The position numbers were made by a program, and so were the translations under genes. From a virus (taxonomy: Duplodnaviria > Heunggongvirae > Uroviricota > Caudoviricetes), in IMG/VR virus record IMGVR_UViG_2645727555_000004, positions 1 through 10,381 of that record: DNA of 10,381 nucleotides. One strand, 5' to 3'. Shown in pieces: positions 222 to 10,200 of this stretch. The notes under the pieces are model-generated. The model saw only the letters and a program-made list of their open reading frames with translations. It searched no databases and was not told the origin of the DNA. The stretch's first letter is position 1. Every line of letters begins with the position of its first letter.

Positions 222-974
222 ATGGCAACACCAAATCCCCTGGCGCCGGTAAAAGGTGCCGGTACCACTCTGTGGGTTTACAACGGCAAGGCTGATGCTT
301 ATGCAAACCCGTTGTCAGACGATGACTGGCAGCGACTGGCTAAGGTGAAGGATCTGACGCCGGGCGAGATGACGGCAGAATCCTACGATGATAACTACCT
401 GGATGATGAAGACGCGGACTGGACCGCGACCGGGCAGGGGCAGAAATCTGCAGGTGATACCAGTTTTACGCTGGCCTGGAAACCGGGAGAGGAAGGCCAG
501 AAAGGGCTTATAGGCTGGTTTGAAAGCGGCGATGTCCGGGCCTATAAAATCCGTTTTCCGAATGGCACGGTGGATGTGTTTCGTGGCTGGGTCAGCAGTA
601 TCGGTAAGGCCGTGACGGCGAAAGAAGTGATCACCCGCACGGTGAAAGTCACTAACGTGGGTAAACCTTCTGTAGCGGAAGAACGCAGCAAAATTACGCC
701 GGTCAGTGCGATTAAGGTGACGCCGACATCCGGTACGGTGGCAAAAGGGAAAACAACCACCCTGACGGTTTCTTTTGAGCCGGAAAGTGCAACCGACAAG
801 ACGTTCAGAGCGGTTTCCGCCGATCCGTCGAAAGCCACCATTAGTGTGAAAGATATGACAATTACGGTAAACGGCGTGGCGACAGGTAAGGTGCAGATCC
901 CTGTGGTGAGCGGAAATGGTCAGTTCGCCGCAGTGGCTGAAGTCACCGTTACTGAAGCGGGCGCTGCAGGGTAA
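222..974 (+). CDS. V: Major tail tube protein V, with C-terminal Ig-like (Big_2-type) domain
   Basis: The 250-aa ORF has an N-terminus ([67 protein letters not shown]) highly similar to lambda gpV. The C-terminal third ([39 protein letters not shown]) resembles the Ig-like decoration domain. A GAGGA Shine-Dalgarno lies at 213-217. Position between U and G fits. Confidence 0.92.
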
Positions 975-987
975 ACGGAGGTAATAC

Positions 988-1410
988 ATGTTTCTGAAAA
1001 CAGAACAATTTGAATATAACGGTGTGTCTGTCACGCTTTCTGAGCTGTCTGCGCTGCAGCGGTTTGATTATATAAAGTTTGTTTCAGACGCAGAACAACA
1101 GGAGACAACGAAGCATGATGTCGTGCACATTAACCAGCGATACCTGGAAACGGCATCCCTGCTTGTGGCGATGTCGCTATGGCATACCCATTCCCTCAAA
1201 GGCACTCTGGCCTCTCCGGAGACAGAGATGCAGCAGATCCGCCGTGAAGTGATGCTGGGATGGCCTGCTGATGCACTGAATCAGGCAACGAACCGGGTGC
1301 TTTATCTTTCAGGTATGCTGGATAACCGGCACGATGCCGATCCTGAACAAACCGGGAAAGCAGAAGCGACTGAGCCGGTAACATCAAAAAAGCATTCGAA
1401 GGCGAGCTGA
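988..1410 (+). CDS. G: Tail assembly chaperone G (zero-frame product)
   Basis: The 140-aa ORF starts MFLKTEQFEYNGVSVTLSELSALQR, matching the lambda gpG N-terminus. A GGAGG Shine-Dalgarno lies at 976-980. It is followed by an overlapping -1 frame ORF, as expected for the G/GT pair. Confidence 0.9.
   Translation: MFLKTEQFEYNGVSVTLSELSALQRFDYIKFVSDAEQQETTKHDVVHINQRYLETASLLVAMSLWHTHSLKGTLASPETEMQQIRREVMLGWPADALNQATNRVLYLSGMLDNRHDADPEQTGKAEATEPVTSKKHSKAS
1386..1392 (+). other. Programmed -1 ribosomal frameshift slippery heptamer A AAA AAG (G to G-T)
   Basis: Seen directly: tc A AAA AAG ca, with the zero-frame codons AAA AAG at 1387-1392 (Lys-Lys in G). After a -1 slip the frame continues as AAA AAA GCA TTC... 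into the T frame. This is the only X XXY YYZ heptamer located between the -1 frame stop (1371-1373) and the G stop (1408-1410). Confidence 0.7.
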
Positions 1411-1850
1411 ACTTTGTCCTGAAACTGGCGCGAGAGATGGGGAGACCCGACTGGCGCGCCATGCTTGCCGGGATGACATCCACCGAATATGCCGACTGGC
1501 GACGTTTTTACTGCACGCATTATTTTCAGGATACCCAACTGGACGCTCATTTTTCCGGGCTGATGTACGCCGTACTCAGCCTGTTTTTTGGCGATCCGGA
1601 TATGCATCCGGCGGATTTCAGTCTGCTTGCTCCAGCGTGTGAGGAAGAGCAGACGGAGATGCCGGACGAGGAAGAAATGCTGATGCAGAAAGCGACAGGA
1701 GTTGCCGGAGGCGTCCGGTTCGGAGGGGACGGAGGGCGCGATATTTCACCTTCTGCGGATGTGGTGGATGTCAGCGAGGATGATGTTGCATTAATGATGG
1801 CTTCAGCGGGGATTTCCGGAGGTGTGAGATATGTCCCAGCCAGCGGGTGA
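1392..1850 (+). CDS. T: T portion of the tail assembly chaperone G-T fusion, made by programmed -1 ribosomal frameshift from G (full product 988..1392 joined to 1392..1850)
   Basis: The -1 frame relative to G is open from 1374 (just after an in-frame TGA at 1371-1373) to the stop at 1848-1850. It has no convincing Shine-Dalgarno of its own. A slippery heptamer A AAA AAG at 1386-1392 is in the correct register in the G frame. The G-then-T arrangement before the tape measure gene is conserved in lambda and most long-tailed phages. Confidence 0.8.
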   Translation, partial: AFEGELNFVLKLAREMGRPDWRAMLAGMTSTEYADWRRFYCTHYFQDTQLDAHFSGLMYAVLSLFFGDPDMHPADFSLLAPACEEEQTEMPDEEEMLMQKATGVAGGVRFGGDGGRDISPSADVVDVSEDDVALMMASAGISGGVRYVPASG

Positions 1851-4443
1851 TCTGGTTATTGATTTGAGTCTGGATGCGGCCCGGTTTGATGAACAGATGG
1901 CCCGGGTACGCCGTCATTTTTCCAGTCTGGAGGCGGATGCCAGAAAAACCGCCAGTACTGTTGAACAGGGGCTGAGCCGACAGGCGCTGGCTGCACAAAA
2001 AGCCGGGATATCAGTCGGACAGTATAAGGCTGCCATGCGCACACTGCCCGCACAGTTCACGGATATTGTCACTCAGCTTGCCGGTGGTCAGAATCCCTTC
2101 CTTATCATGCTGCAGCAGGGGGGGCAGATCAGCGATTCATTCGGTGGACCGCTCAGCCTGCTTACCCTGCTGAAGGAGGAACTTCTCGGGATCAGGGATG
2201 CCTCTGAATCATCAGAGGAGTCGCTGTCAGATACGGCAAATGCACTGGCTGAAAATGCCCGGAATGCCGGTGAGCTGGGACGATTTATGTCGGTGGCCCG
2301 TGTGGCGGCAGGTGGCGGGGTTGCCGTACTGGCCGCGCTTGCTGCCGCCGCCTGGCAGGCAGAGCAGGCTGACCGGGCCTTATTGCGTTCACTGATCCTG
2401 ACCGGAGGGGCGGCTGCCACCACAACGGCAGAATTGTGGAAAATGGCCGGGGTGATCAGCGATGAAGCCGGTGGTGGTATCAGACAGGCGGCAGAAAATC
2501 TGGCCCGTCTGGCAGAAAGCGGGAAATATACCGCCGGGCAGCTACGGATCATGGGGGAAACCTCTCAGAGATGGCTGCAGACGGTGGGGGACGATGCCGG
2601 GAAGGTGGAAAAAGCCTTTGAAGGGATTGCAGCAGATCCGGTGAAGGCGCTGGCCTCCCTGAATCAGCAGTATAACTTCCTGAGCGTTTCCCAGTTACGC
2701 CATATTGATGAGCTTGAGCGCACGAAAGGTAAACAGGCTGCGGTGACGGAGGCGATGTCCCTGTTTGCGGATGTCATGAATGCACGTCTGGAGCAACTTG
2801 ATAAAGCGGCCACGCCGGTGGAAAAAATCTGGGACGATGTTAAAACCTGGACTTCTGACGCATGGGCATGGATAGGTGATCATACACTGGGGGCACTCAG
2901 TCTGATCACTGACGTGGTGGCCGGAACCGTTGAACAGGTGAAGCTGCTGCTTGTGCAGGGGGATCTGGCGCTGGCTGAATTTATTCAGTCAGCCTGGGAA
3001 ACGACAAAGAATGTGCCCGGCGTTGGTGCGTTGTTTGGTGAACTGGCAGAAGAGAACCGCGTATTTATTGAGAAAACAAAACGCGATGAACTGGCGCTGA
3101 GAAAATCCATTGCGGAACGGGATGCGCGTATACGCCAGGGGGAAATGGGGTACATCAACCGCTCGCGTGCAACAGGCGTCAGCAAAGGTCCTGGGCAGCA
3201 GGAAGCCGTCAGCCGTCTGGCTGAAGAGCTGACAGGTAAAAAGCATACATCACCGAAAACGCGCTCTGCCGGGGAGAGGGAAGAGGAGCAGGCAAGAGAG
3301 GCTCTGCTTGCCCTTGAAGCTGAGCTCAGGACGCTGGAAAAACACAGCGGTGCGAATGAGAAAATCAGCCTGCAGCGCCGTGATTTATGGAAGGCGGAAA
3401 GTCAGTATGCGGTCCTGAAAGAGGCTGCCACGAAACGGCAGTTATCTGAGCAGGAAAAATCCCTGCTGGCCCATGAGAAAGAAACGCTGGAGTACAAACG
3501 CCAGCTGGCTGAGCTGGGCGACAAGATTGAACACCAGAAACGGCTGAATGAGCTGGCACAGCAGGCGGCGCGGTTTGAACAGCAGCAGAGCGCGAAGCAG
3601 GCGGCAATCAGCGCAAAAGCCCGCGGACTCACCGACCGTCAGGCGCAGCGGGAGTCGGAAGAGCAGCGCCTTCGTGAGGTGTACGGTGATAATCCGGCTG
3701 CGCTGGCGAAGGCCACATCTGCACTGAAGAACACCTGGTCTGCGGAGGAGCAGCTTCGTGGAAGCTGGATGGCCGGGATGAAGTCCGGCTGGGGCGAGTG
3801 GGCGGAAAGTGCGACGGACAGTTTTTCGCAGGTTAAAAACGCGGCCACGCAGACCTTTGACGGTATTGCACAGAATATGGCAGCGATGCTGACCGGCAGC
3901 GAACAGAACTGGCGTGGTTTCACCCGTTCTGTGCTGTCCATGCTGACAGAGATTTTTCTGAAGCAGGCGATGGTGGGGATAGTCGGGAGTATCGGCAGCG
4001 CCATTGGCGGTGCTTTCGGTGGCGGCGCATCCGCGTCAGGCGGTACAGCCATTCAGGCCGCTGCGGCGAAATTCCATTTTGCAACCGGAGGATTTACGGG
4101 AACCGGCGGCAAATATGAGCCAGCGGGAATTGTTCACCGCGGTGAATTCGTCTTCACGAAGGAGGCAACCAGCCGGATTGGCGTGGGGAATCTCTACCGG
4201 CTGATGCGCGGCTATGCCACCGGCGGTTATGTCGGTACACCGGGCAGCATGGCGGACAGCCGGTCGCAGGCGTCCGGGACGTTTGAGCAGAATAACCATG
4301 TGGTGATTAACAACGACGGCACGAACGGTCAGATAGGGCCACAGGCACTGAAGGCTGTTTATGACGTAGCCCGTAAGGCGGCAATGGATGTTGTGACCGG
4401 GCAGATGCGCGATGGTGGTCTGTTCTCCGGAGGTGGACGATGA
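1831..4443 (+). CDS. H: Tail tape measure protein H
   Basis: The 870-aa ORF has an N-terminus (DLVIDLSLDAARFDEQMARVRRHFS...AAQKAGISVGQYKAAMRTLPAQFTD) and C-terminal ~300 aa (LEAELRTLEKH.GANEKIS.QRRDLWKAES...FHFATGGFTGTGGKYEPAGIVHRGEFVFTKEATSRIGVGNLYRLMRGYATGGYVG...MRDGGLFSGGGR) that match lambda gpH. The middle is Ala/Glu/Gln-rich and helical in character, typical of tape measure proteins. It is the largest ORF, follows G-T, and has a GGAGG Shine-Dalgarno before the ATG. Confidence 0.93.
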   Translation: MSQPAGDLVIDLSLDAARFDEQMARVRRHFSSLEADARKTASTVEQGLSRQALAAQKAGISVGQYKAAMRTLPAQFTDIVTQLAGGQNPFLIMLQQGGQISDSFGGPLSLLTLLKEELLGIRDASESSEESLSDTANALAENARNAGELGRFMSVARVAAGGGVAVLAALAAAAWQAEQADRALLRSLILTGGAAATTTAELWKMAGVISDEAGGGIRQAAENLARLAESGKYTAGQLRIMGETSQRWLQTVGDDAGKVEKAFEGIAADPVKALASLNQQYNFLSVSQLRHIDELERTKGKQAAVTEAMSLFADVMNARLEQLDKAATPVEKIWDDVKTWTSDAWAWIGDHTLGALSLITDVVAGTVEQVKLLLVQGDLALAEFIQSAWETTKNVPGVGALFGELAEENRVFIEKTKRDELALRKSIAERDARIRQGEMGYINRSRATGVSKGPGQQEAVSRLAEELTGKKHTSPKTRSAGEREEEQAREALLALEAELRTLEKHSGANEKISLQRRDLWKAESQYAVLKEAATKRQLSEQEKSLLAHEKETLEYKRQLAELGDKIEHQKRLNELAQQAARFEQQQSAKQAAISAKARGLTDRQAQRESEEQRLREVYGDNPAALAKATSALKNTWSAEEQLRGSWMAGMKSGWGEWAESATDSFSQVKNAATQTFDGIAQNMAAMLTGSEQNWRGFTRSVLSMLTEIFLKQAMVGIVGSIGSAIGGAFGGGASASGGTAIQAAAAKFHFATGGFTGTGGKYEPAGIVHRGEFVFTKEATSRIGVGNLYRLMRGYATGGYVGTPGSMADSRSQASGTFEQNNHVVINNDGTNGQIGPQALKAVYDVARKAAMDVVTGQMRDGGLFSGGGR

Positions 4444-6216: not shown

Positions 6217-6755
6217 AAACGGGGGCTGAAGCCATCCGGGCACTGGCCACACAGCTCCCGGCGTTTCGTCAGAAACTGAGCGATGGCTGGTATCAGGTAC
6301 GGATTGCCGGGCGGGATGCAGGAGAAACCGAATTATCATCCCGTCTTAATGAGCCGCTGGCAAATGGTGCCGTGATCCACATCGTGCCGCGTCTTGCGGG
6401 AGCAAAAAGTGGCGGTGTGTTTCAGGCGGTGCTGGGTGCGGCGTTGATTGCTACGGCAATCTGGATGCCGGGGATCAGTATCGCTTTCAGTGACATTCTC
6501 TTTTCAATGGGTGCGGCAATGACGCTTGGTGGTGTGGCGCAGATGCTGGCACCGAAAGCCAGAACTCCCCGTACACAGACAACGGATAACGGCAAACAGA
6601 ACACCTATTTCTCCTCACTGGATAACATGGTTGCCCAGGGCAATGTCCTGCCTGTTCTGTACGGTGAAATGCGCGTGGGGTCACGTGTGGCATCTCAGGA
6701 GATCAGCACGGCAGATGAAGGGGATGGTGGTCAGGTTGTGGTAATTGGGCGGTAA
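6114..6755 (+). CDS. I: Tail tip assembly protein I
   Basis: The 213-aa ORF has an N-terminus (MAATHTLPLASPGMARICLYGDLQRFGRRIDLRVKTGAEAIRALATQLPAFRQKLSDGWYQVRIAGRD) and C-terminus (APKARTPR.QTTDNGKQNTYFSSLDNMVAQGNVLPVLYGEMRVGSRV.SQEISTADEGDGGQVVVIGR) that match lambda gpI. It overlaps the 3' end of K by 103 nt in a different frame, as in lambda. Confidence 0.88.
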   Translation: MAATHTLPLASPGMARICLYGDLQRFGRRIDLRVKTGAEAIRALATQLPAFRQKLSDGWYQVRIAGRDAGETELSSRLNEPLANGAVIHIVPRLAGAKSGGVFQAVLGAALIATAIWMPGISIAFSDILFSMGAAMTLGGVAQMLAPKARTPRTQTTDNGKQNTYFSSLDNMVAQGNVLPVLYGEMRVGSRVASQEISTADEGDGGQVVVIGR

Positions 6756-6828
6756 TATTATTTTACTCATGTTCTAACTAATTTAATATTTATATCGAAC
6801 ACTGATAATTATTCTATTGGTTAGCTAT
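6756..6828 (+). promoter_or_regulatory. AT-rich upstream region of the moron gene; putative sigma70-type promoter (exact -35/-10 not resolvable by eye)
   Basis: This is a very AT-rich 73-nt stretch (tattattttactcatgttctaactaatttaatatttatatcgaacactgataattattctattggttagctat) immediately 5' of the lipoprotein ORF. It contains several near -10 hexamers (TAATAT at 6784-6789, GATAAT at 6804-6809), but no -35 element could be matched convincingly. Morons typically carry their own promoter. Confidence 0.25.
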
Positions 6829-7167
6829 ATGAACAAAACGATTTTATTCTGCACGATTATTGCCTTAACAGGATGTAAATCTTTGGATTACGTAAAATCC
6901 GGAAAACCTGTAATGGAAGGTAATTCATTAAAAAATATTGATGAATTGTCAGGCTGCATATCCAGACAATGGGCTGGTAATGGAACACCTATAACATCCC
7001 TTCCTATTGAGAATGGGGTAAGCCTTTTAGTTCCACAGGCTATGGGGGGATATGATGTTGTGCTTGATATCAAAAAAGCAGGAAATGGCAGTAGTTTTAC
7101 TCTTTATGAACGTGTACCAGCATTAACGCCAAAAATTTTTGCTGATAGTGTTAATGCATGTAAATAA
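6829..7167 (+). CDS. Small predicted outer-membrane lipoprotein encoded on an AT-rich moron between tail genes I and J; function unknown (candidate superinfection-exclusion or host-envelope factor)
   Basis: The ORF is 112 aa from ATG 6829 (the track's TTG start at 6817 is less likely). The N-terminus MNKTILFCTIIALTGC has a basic n-region, a hydrophobic core and a lipobox LTGC, so it looks like a signal peptidase II substrate. The residue after the lipidated Cys is Lys, not Asp, which implies outer-membrane sorting by the Lol pathway. The mature part has two further Cys residues (SGC, NAC). G+C is visibly far lower than in the flanking tail genes, and the gene is followed by an intrinsic terminator. 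No homolog was recognised from memory. Confidence 0.7.
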   Translation: MNKTILFCTIIALTGCKSLDYVKSGKPVMEGNSLKNIDELSGCISRQWAGNGTPITSLPIENGVSLLVPQAMGGYDVVLDIKKAGNGSSFTLYERVPALTPKIFADSVNACK

Positions 7168-7189
7168 TAGTTAATCCTGTCGTAACTCA

Positions 7190-7220
7190 TGAGCCGCCTT
7201 TTGGGCGGCTTTGTTGTTTA
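7190..7220 (+). terminator. Rho-independent terminator downstream of the moron lipoprotein gene
   Basis: A perfect 7-bp GC-rich inverted repeat AGCCGCC (7192-7198) and GGCGGCT (7204-7210) flanks a TTTTG loop and is followed by the T-rich tract TTGTTGTTT (7211-7219). It sits 25 nt after the lipoprotein stop and just before the J ribosome-binding site. Confidence 0.6.
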
Positions 7221-7233
7221 TGGAGTGTGAGGA

Positions 7234-10200
7234 ATGGGTAAAGGAAGCAGTAAGGGGCATACCCCGCGCGAAGCGAGGGACAACCTGAAGTCCACGCAGC
7301 TGCTGAGTGTGATCGATGCCATCAGCGAAGGGCCGGTTGAAGGTCCGGTGGACGGATTAAAAAGCGTGCTGCTGAACAGTACGCCGGTGCTGGACAGTGA
7401 GGGGAATACCAATATATCCGGTGTCACGGTGGTGTTCCGGGCAGGTGAGCAGGAGCAGACACCGCCGGAGGGATTTGAATCCTCCGGCTCCGAGACGGTG
7501 CTGGGTACGGAAGTGAAATATGACACGCCGATCACCCGGACCATCACGTCGGCAAACATCGACCGTCTGCGCTTTACCTTCGGTGTGCAGGCTCTGGTGG
7601 AAACCACCTCAAAGGGGGACCGGAATCCGTCGGAAGTCCGCCTGCTGGTTCAGATACAACGTAACGGTGGCTGGGTGACGGAAAAAGACATCACCATTAA
7701 AGGCAAAACCACCTCACAGTATCTGGCCTCGGTGGTGGTGGGTAACCTGCCGCCGCGCCCGTTTAATATCCGGATGCGCAGGATGACGCCGGACAGCACC
7801 ACAGACCAGCTGCAGAACAAAACGCTCTGGTCGTCATACACCGAAATCATCGATGTGAAACAGGGCTACCCGAACACGGCACTGGTCGGCGTGCAGGTGG
7901 ACTCGGAGCAGTTCGGTAGCCAGCAGGTGAGCCGTAATTATCATCTGCGCGGGCGTATTCTGCAGGTGCCGTCGAATTATAACCCGCAGACGCGGCAATA
8001 CAGCGGTATCTGGGACGGAACGTTTAAACCGGCATACAGCAACAACATGGCCTGGTGTCTGTGGGATATGCTGACCCATCCACGCTACGGCATGGGGAAA
8101 CGTCTTGGTGCGGCGGATGTGGACAAATGGGCGCTGTATGTCATCGGCCAGTACTGCGACCAGTCGGTGCCGGATGGCTTTGGTGGCACGGAGCCGCGTA
8201 TTACCTGTAATGCGTACCTGACCACGCAGCGCAAGGCGTGGGATGTGCTCAGTGATTTCTGCTCGGCGATGCGCTGTATGCCGGTATGGAACGGGCAGAC
8301 GCTGACGTTTGTGCAGGACCGGCCATCGGATAAGGTGTGGACCTATAACCGCAGTAATGTGGTGATGCCGGATGATGGCGCGCCGTTCCGCTACAGCTTC
8401 AGCGCCCTGAAAGACCGCCATAATGCCGTTGAGGTGAACTGGATTGACCCGAACAACGGCTGGGAGACGGCGACAGAGCTTGTGGAGGATACGCAGGCCA
8501 TTGCCCGTTACGGTCGTAACGTCACGAAGATGGATGCTTTTGGCTGTACCAGCCGGGGGCAGGCACACCGCGCCGGGCTGTGGCTGATTAAAACAGAACT
8601 GCTGGAAACGCAGACCGTGGACTTCAGCGTGGGCGCAGAAGGGCTTCGCCATGTGCCGGGCGATGTCATTGAAATCTGTGATGATGACTATGCCGGTATC
8701 AGCACCGGCGGGCGCGTGCTGGCGGTAAACAGCCAGACCCGGACGCTGACGCTCGACCGTGAAATCACGCTGCCATCCTCCGGCACCACGCTGATAAGCC
8801 TGGTTGACGGACAGGGGAATCCGGTCAGCGTGGAGGTCCAGTCCGTCACCGACGGCGTGAAGGTGAAAGTGAGCCGTGTTCCTGACGGCGTTGCCGAATA
8901 CAGCGTGTGGGGGCTGAAGCTGCCGACGCTGCGCCAGCGCCTGTTCCGCTGCGTGAGTATCCGTGAGAACGATGACGGCACGTATGCCATCACCGCCGTG
9001 CAGCATGTACCGGAAAAAGAAGCCATCGTGGATAACGGGGCGCACTTTGACGGCGACCAGAGCGGCACGGTGAATGGTGTCACGCCGCCAGCGGTGCAGC
9101 ACCTGACTGCCGAAGTCACCGCAGACAGCGGGGAGTATCAGGTACTGGCCCGCTGGGACACGCCGAAGGTGGTGAAGGGCGTGAGCTTCCTGCTTCGCCT
9201 GACCGTGGCAGCGGATGACGGCAGTGAGCGGCTGGTCAGCACGGCCAGGACGACGGAAACCACATACCGCTTCACGCAACTGGCGCTGGGAAACTACAGG
9301 CTGACAGTCCGGGCGGCAAATGCCTGGGGGCAGCAGGGCGATCCGGCATCGGTATCGTTCCGGATTGCCGCACCGGCAGCGCCGTCGCGGATTGAGCTGA
9401 CGCCGGGCTATTTTCAGATAACCGCCACGCCGTATCTTGCCGTTTATGATCCGACGGTACAGTTTGAGTTCTGGTTCTCAGAAAAGCGGATTGCGGATAT
9501 CAGGCAGGTTGAAACCGCAGCCCGCTATCTTGGCTCGGCGCTGTACTGGATAGCTGCCAGTATCAATATCAAACCGGGCCATGATTATTATTTTTATATC
9601 CGCAGTGTGAATACTGTTGGCAAATCGGCATTTGTGGAGGCTGTTGGCCAGCCGAGTGATGATGCATCCGGCTATCTGGATTTTTTCAAAGGAGAGATAG
9701 GGAAAACCCATCTGGCTCAGGAGTTGTGGACGCAGATTGATAACGGTCAGCTTGCGCCTGACCTGGCTGAAATCAGGACGTCCATTACGGATGTCAGCAA
9801 TGAAATCACGCAGACCGTCAATAAAAAACTGGAAGACCAGAGTGCAGCGATCCAGCAGATACAGAAGGTTCAGGTTGATACAAATAATAATCTGAACAGC
9901 ATGTGGGCTGTGAAGCTGCAGCAGATGCAGGACGGACGCCTTTATATTGCGGGTATCGGTGCCGGTATTGAGAATACGCCAGCAGGAATGCAGAGTCAGG
10001 TGCTGCTGGCGGCAGACAGGATTGCGATGATTAATCCTGCGAATGGCAACACAAAGCCGATGTTTGTTGGTCAGGGTGATCAGATATTCATGAACGACGT
10101 GTTCCTGAAACGCCTGACGGCCCCCACCATTACCAGCGGCGGTAATCCTCCGGCATTTTCCCTGACACCGGACGGGCGGCTGACGGCGAAAAATGCCGAT

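Follow-up and report, generated by a model that had tools for sequence, protein, structure and literature searches.

The −1 frameshift between genes G and T of phage lambda has reportedly been studied by Levin, Hendrix and Casjens (1993) and by Xu, Hendrix and Duda (2004, 2013 and 2014). The lambda G-T shift rate is about 4% (PMC3296357), and the G and G-T products stand at a ratio of 30:1 (PMC5009743). G-T frameshifting is conserved despite sequence divergence, as Xu, Hendrix and Duda concluded in 2004 (via PMC5009743 and PMC10885494), and different heptamers at the g-t site of related viruses are documented (PMC5009743).

The orfA–orfB pairs of IS3 and IS911, in which A AAA AAG is the commonest heptamer, resemble the locus described here in making a fusion from two overlapping frames; their product is a transposase and their stimulators are well-defined stem-loops or pseudoknots, often with a Shine-Dalgarno (SD)-like element, whereas the present product is a virion assembly chaperone. 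In dnaX the shift occurs at a frequency of about 50% and gives a shorter product, in contrast to the longer product expected here at a few percent. The dnaX site has the identical A AAA AAG and is read by the same host machinery, tRNA-Lys there moving from AAG to AAA (PMC5009743). It differs in having an upstream SD-like stimulator and a strong stem-loop close downstream; the present locus is without the SD-like element, and its candidate stem is weak and interrupted.

Efficiencies for all 64 heptamers in E. coli come from Sharma et al. 2014 (PMC4066793 supplement). With no stimulator, A AAA AAG shifted at 0.29% and G GGA AAG at 0.28%; with the IS911 stimulators the values were 4.3% and 3.8%, and with the IS3 pseudoknot 39% and 43% (PMC4066793 supplement). 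These near-equal values imply that a swap between the two heptamers is functionally neutral, the two being interchangeable. Under one and the same stimulator, the best tetramer, A AAG, was about ten-fold less efficient than the best heptamer (Sharma et al. 2014). In Table S4 of that study, two prophage tail chaperone clusters are listed as true −1 cases, A_AAA_AAG_25 (ECs1801) and G_GGA_AAG_4 (gpG); the hairpins predicted for them do not exceed the local background in stability (delta-delta-G 0.020). Of the two, gpG (135/279) is of the lambda type. In ECs1801 the motif sits at residue 124 and the fusion measures 226 aa, so this chaperone gene is not the one that encodes the 140/287-aa pair analysed here; together the two clusters carry the same two heptamers as our locus and lambda.

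Results

The window, by which we mean the whole stretch of 10,381 nt that was analysed, is by homology and gene order the tail module of a lambdoid E. coli prophage (V-G-T-H-M-L-K-I-J). Positions 900–1900 are 99.9% identical to O104:H4 E. coli prophages and 99% identical to Stx1a-converting phages, and 2360 of 5426 complete E. coli genomes carry related sequence. Pfam families of lambda type run through the whole module (V, G, T, H, M, L, K and I), so that its G-T site belongs to a textbook lambda tail module. As in lambda, the pair lies between V and H, combines PF06894 with PF06223, and has its second frame offset in the −1 direction; M, L, K, I and J follow further on, J beginning at 7234 and being incomplete at the window end. 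RefSeq names G 'phage tail assembly chaperone G' in the 99.9% identical prophage. The features of the G/T region are as follows.

222..974, plus strand: V, major tail tube protein, the gene 5' of G (Pfam Phage_TTP_12, E=1.1e-68, plus Big_2)
988..1410, plus strand: gene G, tail assembly chaperone, zero frame, 140 aa (PF06894 Phage_TAC_2, E=8.8e-34, residues 1-123)
1371..1373, plus strand: TGA in the −1 (T) frame, the upstream limit for shifts able to reach T
1386..1392, plus strand: slippery heptamer A AAA AAG in X XXY YYZ register, at Lys134-Lys135 of G, aligned with that of lambda
1392..1850, plus strand: T part of G-T, −1 frame, 152 aa (Pfam PF06223 Phage_tail_T)
1408..1410, plus strand: TGA stop of G, 15 nt 3' of the heptamer, as in lambda
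1831..4443, plus strand: H, tape measure protein, the gene 3' of T (Pfam TMP_2, Tape_meas_lam_C)

The ATG at 988 fixes the frame of G, with codon starts at 1 mod 3. Reading of the sequence by hand and its translation show the −1 frame to be open from 1374 to 1850, after the TGA at 1371-1373. This confirms the proposal of a first-pass annotation that the T frame is open only from 1374 and that a ribosome must shift before the G stop. In five related loci the equivalent of this TGA is missing and the −1 frame opens earlier. A −1 shift at the heptamer gives a predicted fusion of 287 aa; its translation agrees with the junction that had been foreseen, ...PVTSKK followed by AFEGELNFVLK. Direct reading of the sequence, the ORF list and the translations likewise showed the coordinates and frames of that annotation to be correct throughout.

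At the heptamer, the zero-frame codons are AAA (1387-1389, Lys134) and AAG (1390-1392, Lys135), and no other X XXY YYZ heptamer lies in register within the G/T overlap. As a bare 7-mer AAAAAAG is not enriched, with 2 copies in the whole window against 1.13 expected. A shift can reach T from 10 in-register starts (1374 to 1401). Assuming equal base frequencies, we estimate a chance of about 4% that any X XXY YYZ heptamer would fall at one of these; if only the three heptamers that work best in E. coli are counted, the chance is about 0.2%. Conservation of the slip site among relatives, described below, establishes that A AAA AAG at 1386-1392 is not a chance match.

Comparison with lambda (J02459) places the site precisely. 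The codons leading to the G stop read:

lambda: ...CCT GTT TCT GCG GGA AAG TGT TCG ACG GTG AGC TGA
window: ...CCG GTA ACA TCA AAA AAG CAT TCG AAG GCG AGC TGA

In the alignment, the heptamers of window and lambda fall in the same columns, each followed by 15 nt and the G stop, and the window site is on this evidence orthologous to that of lambda. The G halves are 43% identical and the first 79 T residues 81%. The A-site codon AAG, read by a single tRNA-Lys, and the downstream sequence are shared; the P-site codon is GGA (Gly) in lambda and AAA (Lys) in the window, where both slipping tRNAs are tRNA-Lys. With the columns the same and only the P-site codon and the base preceding it different, the site itself has stayed in place and the swap amounts to a replacement of GGA by AAA. 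The exact identity of columns bears out the earlier suggestion that the frameshift position near the C terminus of G was kept while the heptamer was exchanged. The choice of A AAA AAG at 1386-1392 as the slip site is upheld by its register, by the match to the lambda columns and by its fixed position in relatives.

The letters of the lambda heptamer also occur further upstream, 25 nt 5' of A AAA AAG:

1354..1360, plus strand: GGGAAAG, read as GGG AAA G; an out-of-register chance copy and no slip site

This sequence had been named as the G-T heptamer of lambda, correctly, since J02459 has G GGA AAG. That a lambda-derived GGGAAAG at this place, with all seven letters identical, should be the functional slip site is nonetheless improbable in the extreme. 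In the reading GGG AAA G the P- and A-site tRNAs are unable to re-pair in the −1 frame, and the −1 frame entered there is stopped by the TGA at 1371-1373; it had been dismissed on these same grounds, as being in the wrong register and a dead end. Nor does it lie in the alignment columns of the lambda slip site. Its counterpart is altered in close relatives, to GGGAAAA in VT1-Sakai (94% identical) and to TAAAG in locus L005, both of which retain A AAA AAG. Finally, its frequency is that of chance, with 3 copies found as a bare 7-mer in the whole window against 1.64 expected.

A programmed −1 ribosomal shift at A AAA AAG very probably yields both G and G-T from this locus, to judge from reading frames and conservation. 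The majority of ribosomes on G would end at the TGA at 1408-1410 and release the 140-aa G. In a minority, tRNA-Lys on AAA in the P site and tRNA-Lys on AAG in the A site would both move back one base, onto AAA AAA, and the −1 frame would be read to 1850, giving a putative 287-aa G-T fusion with the junction ...PVTSKK-AFEGELNFVLK. If the proteins act as their lambda homologues do, the tape measure protein H would be coated by G together with the G portion of G-T, and the T portion would recruit the tail tube protein V. The ratio of G to G-T, about 30:1 (a value from lambda only), would be fixed by the shift frequency. G-T would be expected at a few percent. The bare heptamer gives about 0.3% in one reporter system, so the context would have to contribute if the level is to reach the few percent of lambda; the lambda value of about 4% is nearer to the 'moderately stimulated' values than to those of bare motifs.

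The heptamer contains six consecutive A residues, and a frame change could in principle arise from slippage of RNA polymerase, with deletion of one base from the mRNA, rather than from the ribosome. Efficient bacterial transcriptional slippage involves runs of about 8–9 or more. Slippage at homopolymer runs as such is known in bacteria (PMC5009743); against it, A AAA AAG is a proven ribosomal shift site in dnaX and many IS elements (PMC5009743). The homologous sites G GGA AAG and G GAA AAG, moreover, have A runs of only 3-4, unable to support polymerase slippage, and the conserved mechanism of the family is thus ribosomal. We regard a transcriptional origin as highly improbable.

Translation of T on its own bears on the following feature:

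1437..1439, plus strand: internal ATG, the annotated 'T' start; probably not a real start

RefSeq and GenBank give a separate T CDS from this ATG, and a purine-rich GAGAG stands just 5' of it; T might then be an independent protein of 137 aa and G-T not be made at all. This GAGAG directly touches the ATG, however, with zero spacer, and the Met is replaced by Phe in about two-thirds of the distinct family members. A search for ATG, GTG and TTG between 1374 and 1437 found no T-frame start codon, yet the 15 T-frame codons 5' of the ATG are conserved as protein across the family. The motif GEL-F-LKLARE in particular is conserved among relatives between the heptamer and the first ATG, hence 5' of any start, which indicates that ribosomes read the T frame from the heptamer on and hence make a fusion. 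A slip-competent heptamer at the fixed position in every intact relative, and the expression of lambda T as the −1 frame part of gpGT (PMC5009743), argue in the same direction. Independent initiation without a fusion is therefore very unlikely, and production of T through the −1 shift remains the favoured reading. In all annotations inspected (VT1-Sakai, RefSeq O104:H4 and phages ASU11 and PhiR12_2_star) T is a separate CDS and the G-T fusion is omitted, so that the predicted 287-aa product is missing from protein databases.

G-T and T-domain queries against IMG/VR and GTDB genomes supplied the loci in which variation at the site was surveyed (n=267, some contigs having been fetched twice); the slip heptamer was read as the seven bases 57 nt before the conserved RPDWR codons. 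At this fixed position the 267 loci have GGGAAAG (96), GGAAAAG (85), AAAAAAG (84), GGGAAAA (1) or a deletion (1); among the 62 distinct 100-nt sequences the corresponding numbers are 14, 39, 7, 1 and 1. A slip-competent form is thus present in 266 of 267 related loci, the lone exception being a 31-nt deletion mutant. At least four heptamer forms occur, and the A-site tetramer A AAG is the sole part that never varies in the family. G GAA AAG, in the same register though no canonical X XXY YYZ heptamer, is the commonest form among distant relatives and is carried by Kluyvera, Atlantibacter, Entomohabitans and many further contigs.

The fourth form, G GGA AAA, was seen in a single relative (L253, positions 695-701) whose closest relatives have G GAA AAG. 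In E. coli assays this heptamer gave 0.12% alone and 17% with the IS3 pseudoknot, below G GGA AAG (PMC4066793). The deletion is in an IMG/VR prophage contig (L047, positions 1380-1400; window 1382-1412), where 31 nt are lost together with A AAA AAG and the G stop; with a truncated G and no route to T, this is probably a defective prophage. Another locus, from Shigella flexneri SFBU0723 (L107, positions 993-1092), keeps G GGA AAG and has small indels just downstream, with G apparently interrupted, which suggests a decaying prophage.

When the 3' part of T is used to build a tree, AAAAAAG and GGGAAAG loci come out interleaved, and in one locus (L078) a G of lambda type, with G GGA AAG, is followed by a T that resembles the window's. 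Both observations imply that the heptamer travels with the G half of the mosaic, and recombination joints appear, from these comparisons, to lie near the frameshift site.

Sequences that might stimulate the shift were sought on both sides of the heptamer. On the 5' side there was no SD-like stimulator: positions 1366-1385 (GCGACTGAGCCGGTAACATC) are without GGAG, GAGG or AGGA. On the 3' side, RNA from 1386 to 1480 folds with −34.6 kcal/mol (z-score −3.1). The minimum free energy (MFE) fold contains a candidate outer stem that encloses an inner hairpin.

1401..1407, plus strand: 5' arm of the candidate outer stem, GGCGAGC, 8 nt after the heptamer (MFE fold)
1463..1469, plus strand: 3' arm of the candidate outer stem, GCUUGCC (MFE fold)
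1426..1432, plus strand: 5' arm of the inner hairpin, UGGCGCG; synonymous sites nearly fixed (CTG 58/60, GCG 58/60)
1455..1461, plus strand: 3' arm of the inner hairpin, CGCGCCA; Arg codon CGC in 58/60

A search of 1393-1440 for such a structure, proposed in the first-pass annotation, would have included the 5' arm (1401-1407) and missed the 3' arm (1463-1469), which lies beyond that range. The outermost helix of the MFE fold (1393-1397 with 1471-1475) was rejected for lack of conservation (60.7% paired).

In 61 distinct relatives, 96% of the cells of the outer stem are paired. The pair 1401-1469 is G-C in 36 of them, A-U in 23, G-U in one and unpaired in one. The A-U state is confined to one large clade and a small second one with an otherwise degraded stem; this second G-C to A-U event (L219/L220) was discounted, the helix being absent from its MFE fold. 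Independent covariation events are thus few, with little beyond one clade. The outer stem has 7 bp in all A AAA AAG sequences, the window included, and 8 bp, as in lambda, in 13 of 14 sequences with G GGA AAG. Among 39 sequences with G GAA AAG, 25 have a stem of 10 bp and a spacer of 5 nt, the relatives with the weaker heptamer having the longer stem. Of the sequences with A AAA AAG, G GGA AAG and G GAA AAG, respectively, 6/7, 13/13 and 24/39 have the outer helix in their MFE fold.

Entropy at third codon positions is 0.31 in the stems and 0.61 outside (Mann-Whitney p = 0.004; 10 vs 38 sites). An Arg codon whose third base is unpaired varies freely, and a loop Arg uses all six codons, rare ones included. 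The candidate stem was chosen from single-sequence folds and tested afterwards, so that these comparisons are post hoc, and RNAalifold on the 61 distinct relatives did not recover it, returning a weak and different consensus (−6.6 kcal/mol). Against the stem also stands that the phage clusters of Sharma et al. 2014 show no hairpin of unusual stability. Pairing of 1401-1407 with 1463-1469, 8 nt 3' of the heptamer, may increase the shift rate, and a functional stimulator at this place, as modelled, is possible although we consider it somewhat doubtful. The broader proposal, which we offer tentatively and as less likely than not, is that lambda-family G-T sites could share a conserved 3' RNA stimulator, with an outer stem 5-8 nt after the heptamer and an inner stem, in which slipperiness and stem strength would be traded off to hold G:G-T constant.

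Discussion

The frameshift site found here is correct and ordinary, that of a well-known programmed −1 shift of the lambda type. That the mechanism is conserved rather than the sequence, as the first-pass annotation put it, is supported by the relatives and was already the conclusion published by Xu, Hendrix and Duda (2004). What the present analysis adds is the exact positional orthology of the site, a third and commonest form (G GAA AAG), a gap in annotation and a tentative conserved stem.

The practical message concerns annotation, with T being called as a free-standing gene from an internal ATG. The G:G-T ratio controls tail assembly in lambda-like phages, Stx-converting phages and O104:H4 prophages included. 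Three natural heptamers at one fixed site, with candidate stems of different lengths, form a test series for the balance between slip site and stimulator. Because two tRNA-Lys (mnm5s2U34) would slip at A AAA AAG, the sensitivity of this variant to host tRNA thiolation should be no lower than that of lambda (PMC3296357).

Two minor observations concern the survey and the window. A scan of genome contigs for G-T matched mostly phage lambda itself and gained about a dozen useful distant loci. Short and mostly low-coverage contigs with a G-T overlap identical to that of phage lambda (L085-L097, L102, L104 and L105) were found in Neobacillus, Oceanobacillus, Kitasatospora, Chromatium, Shewanella, Leeuwenhoekiella, Paenibacillus and Enterococcus assemblies; in such unrelated bacteria this looks like contamination with lambda control DNA. 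Within the window, the gap between I (end at 6755) and J (start at 7234) spans 478 nt (6756-7233), compared with about 240 nt in an O104:H4 relative, and contains a 116-aa ORF with a TTG start (6817-7167) that has no Pfam match. The second AAAAAAG of the window (7072-7078) was rejected as a slip site, since it is codon-aligned (AAA AAA G) and its ORF is unsupported.
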